A stretch of DNA of 60,711 nt, filler included, from Stramenopiles sp. TOSAG23-6 (GCA_900128565.1; 12 parts of 12 records of this genome joined end to end with filler, not necessarily neighbours in it), one strand, 5' to 3'; shown: positions 27,973-29,060, counted from the first letter of the whole stretch. The notes: generated by a model from the letters alone, not told the origin. Numbers and translations are program-made.

Positions 27973-29060
27973 TTAGCAACATCCACCTTTAGGCTTCTTT
28001 CTTTCTCCAGGGTTTACAGTTCCTCGAGAATGAGCGGCGGGTGCATTCTTTGCTTGGGTTTCCAGGACTTTCCGAGCCAAATGTTCAAGTATTGTGAAAA
28101 ATATTTTTTTTTGTACAACATTGTTAGGTACAGAATTTTCTATGAAAAAAAATAAATTTGAAATTCAATTTCAAAAACGTACAAACGCTTCGTCGACGCG
28201 AATTTCTTTTTTTGCAGAGCACTCAAAGAACTTGATATTGTTCAACGCAGCTGCCTTTTCGCCTTCTTCATATGTCACAGCGCGTCTATCTTCAAGATCA
28301 CACTTGTTACCTACCATCACTATATCCACCTGCCGGCCTGCAAATTGTTTAATTTGTTTCATCCAATTTTCGACGTGGACGTATGAGACATGATCTGTGA
28401 CATCATAAACACATAAGATACCTTGTGCACCTCTCAAATATGAACGTGTTATAGCTTTAAATCGTTCCTGACCAGCTGTATCCCAAATTTCCAATCGAAC
28501 ACGTTGGCTGTCCAGGTTTATGTATTTATACTTGTAGTCAATCCCAACAGTGGTAATAAAAGTATCAGAAAAAGTACCGATAGCATATCGAAGCATGAGA
28601 CAAGTTTTACCCACACATGTATTGAAAATTATAGAAAATAGTTGATGAATGAGAATATTGTTATTGATAAAAACATGCGCATTTAAAAATTTAGAAAAAA
28701 CAAAGGGGAAGTCGCAAAAATTTACTACCAGAACAGAACGTTGCATCGACATGCTTCCTTAAACTACTCGGAGGTAATCAATCGAGTAATATCAACGGGA
28801 AATATATTCTTAGAGGAATAAACATGGTTACATATTCTCACGTGAACATCGCTACCAGATGTACTGACCAACAAGTTTCAGCGTTTCTGCAATACGTGAA
28901 GAGTGCGGGAGACAGACGATGAGACATGGAAAAGCGGGAAAACTCAGCTCTTTTGAATACAAAACTAAAAATGATATACATCACAGAGCTACAAATAAAA
29001 CTTACCACTATCACCAATCAGCAAAAGCTTGACACTTTTATCGAACTTTGTGTTCGTCAT
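27973..29060 (-). CDS. RAB8: Rab8/RabE-family GTPase, complete, 200 aa; exons 29060-29006, 28616-28183, 28086-27973
   Basis: KLLLIGDSG|VGKT, FITTVGIDYK, WDTAGQERF, GNKCDL, ECSAK, C-terminal GGCC prenylation motif; exon lengths sum to 603 nt. Confidence 0.9.
28087..28182 (-). other. Repeat-family intron, GT...TT
   Basis: TTT|GTACGT...CACAATACTT|GAA gives VDEAF|EHLARKV...GGCC*. Confidence 0.85.
28617..29005 (-). other. 389-nt GT...AT intron (donor GTAAGT, acceptor CAATACAT)
   Basis: Removal restores the P-loop GDSGVGKT; no usable AG near the acceptor. Confidence 0.88.

Follow-up and report, generated by a model that had tools for sequence, protein, structure and literature searches.

A candidate GT-AT intron in the P-loop of a Rab gene of Stramenopiles sp. 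TOSAG23-6

Introduction

A Rab gene of Stramenopiles sp. TOSAG23-6 (GCA_900128565.1) carries in its P-loop a 389-nucleotide (nt) intron that starts with a canonical donor, GTAAGT, and ends with CAT, and the DNA around it holds many copies of a repeat family of introns of about 100 nt. Both were studied in a window of 60,711 nt, the whole stretch of DNA that was analyzed, in whose coordinates all positions are given. On balance, the P-loop intron is probably a conserved-position spliceosomal intron, spliced GT..AT by a spliceosome that does not need a terminal G.

Several described systems resemble this one in part. Transposon-derived non-canonical introns occur in the tunicate Fritillaria borealis (Henriet et al. 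2019, through PMC11282704). Like the family in the window, they are multi-copy, have repeat-like ends and short flank duplications, and show AC or AT for AG at their 3' ends, and they are removed there by an adapted major spliceosome. In Fritillaria, however, the 5' end is AG and the rare conserved-position GT-AG introns stay canonical, whereas in the window the donor is GTAYGT and the conserved-position intron itself lacks AG. The invasive intronic elements of Amoebophrya (PMC7789003; PMC11282704) are similar in that non-canonical, multi-copy introns form the majority there and in that duplicated flanks obscure their exact boundaries. These duplications are of 3-5 nt, the donors are variable and U1 is apparently absent, in contrast to the 2-nt duplication and U1-type donor seen here; Amoebophrya is, moreover, an alveolate lineage, whereas the Rab homologues are stramenopile-like.

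The introners of Micromonas and Aureococcus, the source of most new introns, are comparable in having one splice site in the element and the other in or beside the duplicated flank (PMC11282704), but they yield GT-AG introns, unlike the window family. A survey of introners discards families with unfamiliar splice sites unless these are supported by RNA (PMC12130899), and a family such as that of the window would therefore be dropped from it and stay hidden. The paper on the MAST-4 assemblies speaks of "few but long introns" (PMC5269757), a description which, in our view, reflects missed introns. The nonconventional introns of euglenids share with the window family the direct repeats at the junctions, the ambiguous register and the non-AG 3' ends (PMC11282704). 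They rely on pairing between positions +4 to +6 and -8 to -6, whereas RNAalifold found 0 conserved pairs among 17 copies of the window family. Euglenids also have a class of "intermediate" introns, some with conventional 5' ends.

A last point of comparison is the U12-type AT-AC intron, in which non-AG 3' ends are tolerated and whose branch word is loosely similar to TACCTAAC, a word of the window family. U12-type introns have an (A/G)TATCCTT donor and, at a distance of 10-20 nt from the 3' end, the branch word TCCTTAAC. No RTATCCTT donor is present here, and in most family copies CTAAC is found further from the 3' end, at 33-49 nt. Within the excerpts covered, and supplements aside, the literature on marine stramenopile genomes and introners describes neither this family nor GT-AT introns in marine stramenopiles. 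The window differs from the known systems in its canonical donor, in a 3' cut placed 2 nt after an RTAC word, and in a conserved-position intron that is itself non-AG.

Results and Discussion

The Rab gene and its first intron

The gene occupies part of the contig at 25388-30355 and has three exons and two introns:

29006..29060, minus strand: Rab exon 1, with the ATG at 29060; beta-1 and the first half of the P-loop, ..KLLLIGDS plus the G of the split Gly codon
28617..29005, minus strand: intron 1, 389 nt, GTAAGT...CAATACAT, inserted in phase 1 into the Gly codon that is the fourth of the P-loop; single copy
28183..28616, minus strand: Rab exon 2, VGKTCLMLRYA ... VDEAF; covered by RNA contigs at 28182-28614
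28087..28182, minus strand: intron 2, a 96-nt copy of the repeat family with TACCTAAC, matched by the family hidden Markov model (HMM) at E 3.1e-10 and spanned by an RNA joint
27973..28086, minus strand: Rab exon 3, EHLARKVLE ... KGGCC, stop TAA; covered by RNA contigs at 28018-28085

Exon 1 (29060..29006) encodes MTNTKFDKSVKLLLIGDS followed by the first G of the Gly codon, where the nearest full-length homologues read KLLLIGDSGVGKTCLMLRYA, and exon 2 continues from 28616 as GT GTG GGT AAA ACT. A match of exon 2 to the Pfam Ras profile (PF00071) runs from position 11, at residue 2, to position 154 (E 2.5e-54); exon 1 (positions 1-9) and the V therefore fill positions 1-10 with no gap. The Ras-fold profile, the joined P-loop GDSGVGKT and the C-terminal ..GGCC, with its CC prenylation motif, place the protein in the Rab family, and its homologues, which are named Rab-8A or Rab-1 in the source databases, are stramenopile-like. 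The DNA of intron 1 is real and not an artefact, because an independent seawater-metagenome run, X3, contains a 2125-nt contig that covers 28136-30264 at single-copy depth (7.25) and differs from the window there by only 7 other letters and small indels.

A first-pass annotation, made from the sequence alone, had described a 389-nt Rab P-loop intron with a GTAAGT start and a CAT end, and exactly this sequence is found at 29005..28617 on the minus strand. Its 5' end is GTAAGTTT, with the donor GTAAGT at 29005..29000 conforming to the extended consensus complementary to U1 and U6; its 3' end is CAATACAT, the last two bases being AT and not AG. Around the junction, AG is missing from position -108 to +84: the intron has its last AG 108 nt short of its 3' end, and exon 2 has its first one at base 85. 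Neither CTAAC, TTAAC nor TACCTAAC occurs within the intron, and the only CTAA-type word near its 3' end is a putative branch site:

28690..28694, minus strand: CTAAA, candidate branch site, 74 nt upstream of the 3' end

Assignment to the U12-type minor introns was rejected on the donor, GTAAGTTT, and on the lack of TTAAC or CTAAC. An Rfam search (E<=10, 27062-30355) gave no match in intron 1, and two small nuclear RNA-like words in it (an Sm-like AAATTTTTG and GGTAGTA) were rejected, having no Rfam score. Nothing unusual was revealed when the entire intron and the stretch 28706-28980 were folded for both strands (z +0.6, +1.0 and +0.4).

The junction was chosen by scoring 1244 in-frame, stop-free joins around both boundaries against an HMM of 104 full-length homologues (of 118 listed). 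The top join, at 303.3 bits, yields GDSGVGKT, the P-loop found in 95 of the 104 homologues. Since the first two bases of intron 1 and of exon 2 are both GT, the slides GT..AT, TA..TG and AA..GT all give one mRNA, and among them a normal donor is present only in GT..AT. The register had been described as constrained; this holds in that no 2-nt duplication precedes the donor, but not with regard to the three equivalent slides.

Age of the intron position

Six of the 120 listed homologues pass from unrelated sequence directly into GVGKTCL, at the following read-through junctions (slash, junction):

P0005, ..QLA/G; P0042, ..PFA/G; P0073, ..FSV/G
P0100, ..FYV/G; P0101, MI/G; P0112, ..NKL/G

From the junction G onward P0005 is identical to the spliced P0010 in 183 of 184 residues, and is therefore a reading of that same gene across an intron left unspliced. 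In phase 1 the junction codon consists of the last intron base followed by GT; as the junction residue is G in all six homologues, the last intron base must have been G. The residues that precede it (A, A, V, V, I and L) all allow an NYA codon, which puts YAG before the cut and leaves codon and phase (1) unchanged. At the window junction the sequence is AAT ACA T/GT, that is CAT as against the YAG deduced for the orthologues. These acceptors were deduced from protein letters, and DNA was read only for L006, a Rab on a metagenome contig (45% identical) in which a 61-nt phase-1 intron, GTAAGT..CAG, interrupts the same codon: its exon 1 ends with ..ILIIGDA and the G, followed by GTAAGTTG, and the intron ends with ..ttccag. 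An annotated Phaeothamnion protein reads GDSAGVGKT, which we take for a gene model that used an acceptor 3 nt early. In a metagenome scan with P0003, a 92% relative of the window Rab, the matches listed were distant Rabs (<=48% identity) and did not include the contig of P0003 itself; these loci were used solely to check the intron position.

Because the position of intron 1 is common to these orthologues, it is old, in agreement with the earlier suggestion of a widespread Rab position. The acceptor of intron 1 differs from the presumed ancestral form in the last base, CAG having become CAT.

Splicing of intron 2 and the repeat family

The RNA data are contigs of three polyadenylated (polyA) metatranscriptome runs, X5, X6 and X8, from two studies; one DNA run served for comparison. 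A joint 28085->28182 (slack 3), by which intron 2 with its 96 nt is skipped, was observed in 3/3 RNA runs and in 0/1 DNA run. The spliced product, EAF/EHLARKVLE, agrees with P0003, which reads AAFEHLARKVL straight across the intron 2 site; the family copy may be absent from P0003, which would make it a young insertion, or the P0003 contig may be a transcript. The registers allowed on the gene strand are TA..TG, GT..TT, TG..CT and TT..AC, none of which is GT-AG, AT-AC or AT-ending. The RNA thus proves that non-AG splicing takes place in this organism at intron 2, and AT is therefore not a required dinucleotide. The first-pass annotation had ascribed the AT acceptor to the splicing machinery; it was right in that non-AG ends are truly spliced, but AT as a signal has to be given up, as intron 2, in the GT register, ends in TT and the family in AT, AC, GT or TT.

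The family to which intron 2 belongs, with members of about 100 nt, accounts for almost every other intron of the window. The word TACCTAAC occurs 39 times (0.96 expected), an HMM built from 16 curated copies gives 55 matches at E<0.01, and nearly all junctions between long open reading frames (ORFs) coincide with such a match. A copy has the layout GTAYGTTTTATTTTTTTT .. TTTCGTACGAAATTTTGTACCTAAC .. GAAATATTTTTCCAAAATAC plus 2 nt, and removal of this element with the 2 nt, and nothing else, keeps at least 20 open in-frame codons on both sides in 20 of 23 curated copies. In the GT register, the 20 frame-checked introns start with GT (19) or GA (1) and end with AT (16), AC (2), GT (1) or TT (1). 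Immediately ahead of these two terminal bases stands a four-base word, which is ATAC in 12 copies, GTAC in 3, ATCC in 2, and ATAT, AATC and GTAT in 1 each. The last two intron bases duplicate the last two exon bases in 15/20 copies, and in those the register is therefore ambiguous. Three non-duplicated junctions (8542..8693, 42528..42370 and 24287..24435), at which the registers differ by one residue (R/H, E/I and Q/H, respectively), were also considered; none falls within a Pfam-matched stretch. For the register at two non-duplicated family introns, orthologues were sought with the WD40 gene's middle exon; the three matches, at 38-47% identity, are too distant for single junction residues.

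Downstream of the CTAAC word, nine AGs are present in eight family copies, and use of five of the nine would shift the frame. These five include two perfect TCACAG sites, each only 5 nt ahead of the inferred cut; the copies that hold them have 763/90 and 143/442 open codons on their two sides. The 3' cut of the family is not set by AG; it would fall 2 nt after an (A/G)TAC-like word, irrespective of which two bases follow it. We do not postulate a terminal GUAU/AUAC helix of 4 bp, as by eye it is broken in several copies. In run X3, depth over family sequence reached 63028 (30267-30355) and 1603 (28089-28150), as compared to about 7 in unique flanks, and the intron repeat family is thus hugely repeated in the X3 seawater community.

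Several copies depart from the usual layout. Head-to-tail units were seen at 8542-8693 (plus strand), with two TACCTAAC words at 8570 and 8646, and at 1-187 (plus strand), where a unit ending at 95 is followed directly by GTACGT...CACAATATAT, which extends to 187; in both cases the two units seem to be spliced out together, as a single intron. Two copies have no GT in the usual register. The one at 1033-1132 (plus strand) starts with GAATGT, and an 8-nt flank repeat, ATGAATGT, allows GT..AT 4 nt downstream; the one at 57076..56813 (minus strand), the middle of which is masked by Ns, starts with ATATGTTTTAC, allowing AT..AC or AT..AT. A truncated copy at 213-288 (plus strand; HMM positions 1-69) has TTATTCAG at a possible cut 20 nt after TACCTAAC, making it a candidate in-frame 76-nt GT-AG intron with an upstream exon of only 25 nt. 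If this intron is real, AG acceptors are still usable in the organism.

Alternative readings of intron 1

GT..AT splicing at a conserved position is the reading of intron 1 that we prefer. The sequence itself, the best join, the intron in the same codon of relatives and the non-AG splicing of intron 2 in RNA are direct observations. A number of other observations weigh against this reading, and they are given here together with the alternatives on which they bear. The first two are general: with the exception of L006, which is only 45% identical, the orthologue acceptors were deduced from proteins, and the window offers just one non-family intron.

One possible explanation, unlikely in our judgment, is that intron 1 belongs to the repeat family, or is its parent form, but has a different and longer interior; it would occupy the place of the ancestral intron or have replaced it, and would owe its ACAT end to the element. 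Both ends of intron 1 conform to the termini of the family, for which the 5' pattern is GTAYGTTTTATTT and the 3' pattern (A/C)AATAC followed by 2 nt. Its first 13 bases, GTAAGTTTTATTT, match the family 5' consensus at 12/13 positions, and among 5672 non-family GT sites so close a match was found only at this donor and at its copy in an inverted arm of the contig. Its last 8 bases, CAATACAT, equal a family 3' end, a word present 11 times in the window, 5 of them within family matches. Short non-autonomous elements commonly resemble their longer relatives at the termini only, and the CAT end could thus have come from an element and not from conversion of an old acceptor. The interior speaks against this origin. 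The family HMM search of the window gave no match in 28617-29005 at E<=10, and intron 1 searched alone reached at best -3.6 bits, equalled by 44/200 shuffles. The family body, including TTTCGTACGAAATTTTGTACCTAAC, is missing, and the depth of 7.25 is that of a single copy, in contrast to the 1603 and 63028 over family sequence. The flank is not repeated, the exon ending in TG and the intron in AT, whereas an AT flank is found in 13/20 family copies. Furthermore, relatives carry an intron in the same codon and phase.

The body of intron 1 is thus not a family copy, but both of its termini match the family far more closely than chance would allow. The first-pass annotation, which had noted the lack of the clean family body, is upheld on this point, but the intron is not free of the family, whose ends it bears. 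It had also named the outcome in which orthologues lack the intron and the sequence is a decayed copy of the repeat; the orthologue intron exists, and the body cannot be aligned to the family. As for the shared termini, either the machinery reads longer words to which an old intron has adapted, or the intron and the family share ancestry, in which case the family may have been born from the old intron or the ends of an element may have replaced the old ones. Adaptation and shared ancestry are not separable here, because the window has only one non-family intron. The earlier claim that the AT end reflects the machinery and not just a young element is therefore supported only in part.

A second scenario, to which we give little credence, is that the acceptor was broken by the change from CAG to CAT, so that intron 1 is mostly or always retained in a gene that is decaying or regulated by retention. 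It draws on RNA from the interior of the intron:

28706..28980, strand not assigned: intron 1 interior in polyA RNA contigs (28727-28955, 28823-28980 and 28706-28925)

These contigs, one in each of the three runs, have depths similar to that of exon 2 (2.4, 7.6 and 6.3, respectively). The flanking DnaJ gene and the intergenic DNA have zero depth in the RNA runs, which argues against DNA carry-over. None of the RNA contigs of the three runs is joined across intron 1, and none covers exon 1, 28615-28705 or 28981-29060. RNA that contains the intron, or consists of the excised intron, is abundant, and this is evidence against efficient splicing; it could stem from intron retention, from an intron that is stable after excision, or from a transcript of its own. 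Also in keeping with a broken acceptor, the gene models of the window Rab and of P0003 start at an internal MLRY within exon 2. The P0003 model starts there as if intron 1 were present but unspliceable for the predictor.

Against a broken acceptor, exon 1 is intact and homologue-like, and exons 2 and 3 are expressed and correctly spliced. In the X3 contig, which samples the population, exons 1 and 2 have no listed difference, whereas intron 1 has four substitutions (28624, 28645, 28685 and 28849) and one 2-nt deletion (28836). In addition, a random G>T change would not also create the 8-base 3' word of the family.

A third possibility, which we regard as very improbable, is a register shifted by 2 nt (TG...AC), in which the family would be NN-GTAYGT...RTAC, always ending in AC, and the P-loop of the Rab would be GDRCVGKT. 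RTAC-like words are indeed the most constant 3' feature of the family (ATAC in 12 and GTAC in 3 of 20), the RNA joint of intron 2 permits TT..AC, and AT-AC introns are known to finish in AC (PMC11282704). In the join scoring this register obtained 298.3 bits against 303.3 and ranked 12 of 1244, with R at the third P-loop position in 0/104 homologues, which bears out the earlier preference for GDSGVGKT over GDRCVGKT. Only 5 bits separate the two, and one homologue has GDSCVGKT, with C at the fourth position. The shift would, moreover, move the intron 2 nt off its orthologous position and leave a perfect GTAYGT unused 2 nt inside. The GT register is favoured because GTAYGT is constant, because of the P-loop score, because it coincides with the orthologous intron position, and because the alternative needs arbitrary 5' dinucleotides (TG, GT, GA, AA, CT and CG in the non-duplicated copies).

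Lastly, an assembly artefact, in which the contig is chimeric and exon 1 does not truly lie 389 nt upstream of exon 2, can practically be dismissed, for while the inner boundary 28681/28682 of perfect 1674-nt inverted arms does fall within intron 1, the independent X3 contig runs across it.

The contig, its inverted arms and other features of the window

The window consists of twelve contigs of about 4.97 kb, separated by linkers of the form N44-TTAATTAATTAA-N44, and genes on either side of a linker are not genomic neighbours. In the Rab contig the two arms flank a centre of 1620 nt:

28682..30355, no strand: inverted repeat, right arm; inner edge inside intron 1, junction 28681/28682 spanned by the X3 contig
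25388..27061, no strand: inverted repeat, left arm; reverse-complement copy, with a second exon 1 at 26683-26737 (plus strand) and 324 nt of intron 1

The junction 28681/28682 is genuine, because it is spanned by independent DNA. The left arm interrupts a DnaJ ORF (27052-27573, minus strand) about 10 nt beyond the arm boundary, and an X3 contig continues unbroken for 434 nt past 27062. The left arm is probably a chimera of amplification or assembly; we read the X3 contig as showing a chimera.

Interstitial (TTAGGG)2 or (CCCTAA)2 words were noted at 29174-29185 and 24042-24053, with an arm copy at 26558-26569. One of them is situated some 115 nt upstream of the Rab ATG, where the Rab gene and an SLC12-like permease gene diverge, and may be a promoter motif. 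The contigs 10170-15144 and 30456-35423 are identical in 4585/4585 compared bases at an offset of 20279, down to the positions of single Ns, and each contains one ORF of 1473 codons without a family intron. Tandem ankyrin-like repeats of about 87 nt occupy 58579-60382 (plus strand); there ORFs in two frames overlap near 59588-59619, which looks like a frameshift or an assembly slip and not like an intron.

Conclusions

If intron 1 is spliced GT..AT as we prefer to read it, its 5' end would be recognized at GTAAGT as a normal U1/U6-type donor, and the branch would form at an unmapped site, for which CTAAA 74 nt upstream is a candidate. Ligation of the exons after ..ACAT would then restore GDSGVGKT, by a spliceosome that tolerates T (or C) as the last base. 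From the observations above we infer splicing at this junction, the exact register and the manner in which the 3' site is chosen. A wider proposal can be offered tentatively, and we would sooner doubt than accept it: in this marine stramenopile-like lineage the 3' rule of the major spliceosome would have changed, so that the last intron base can be other than G, the cut is made after Y-A-T or, more generally, 2 nt beyond RTAC, and the YAG of ancestral introns became YAT; the relaxed rule would have allowed the intron-generating repeat, now the source of nearly all introns, or been driven by it. The termini of the repeat may themselves descend from an old intron such as that of the Rab P-loop.

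Gene models of single-cell genomes of this kind are systematically wrong, as exemplified by this Rab, whose model starts at an internal Met. No splice signal of eukaryotes is more constant than the terminal AG, and its choice in the second catalytic step is still studied mainly in yeast and human. If the reading proposed here is true, an abundant free-living protist with a conserved-position intron ending in CAT would be informative on how the 3' site is chosen. Hundreds of young introns cut at a fixed offset from RTAC, bypassing a perfect CAG 5 nt away, would constitute a natural experiment, and the change in the spliceosome and the invasion of introns could be ordered in time.
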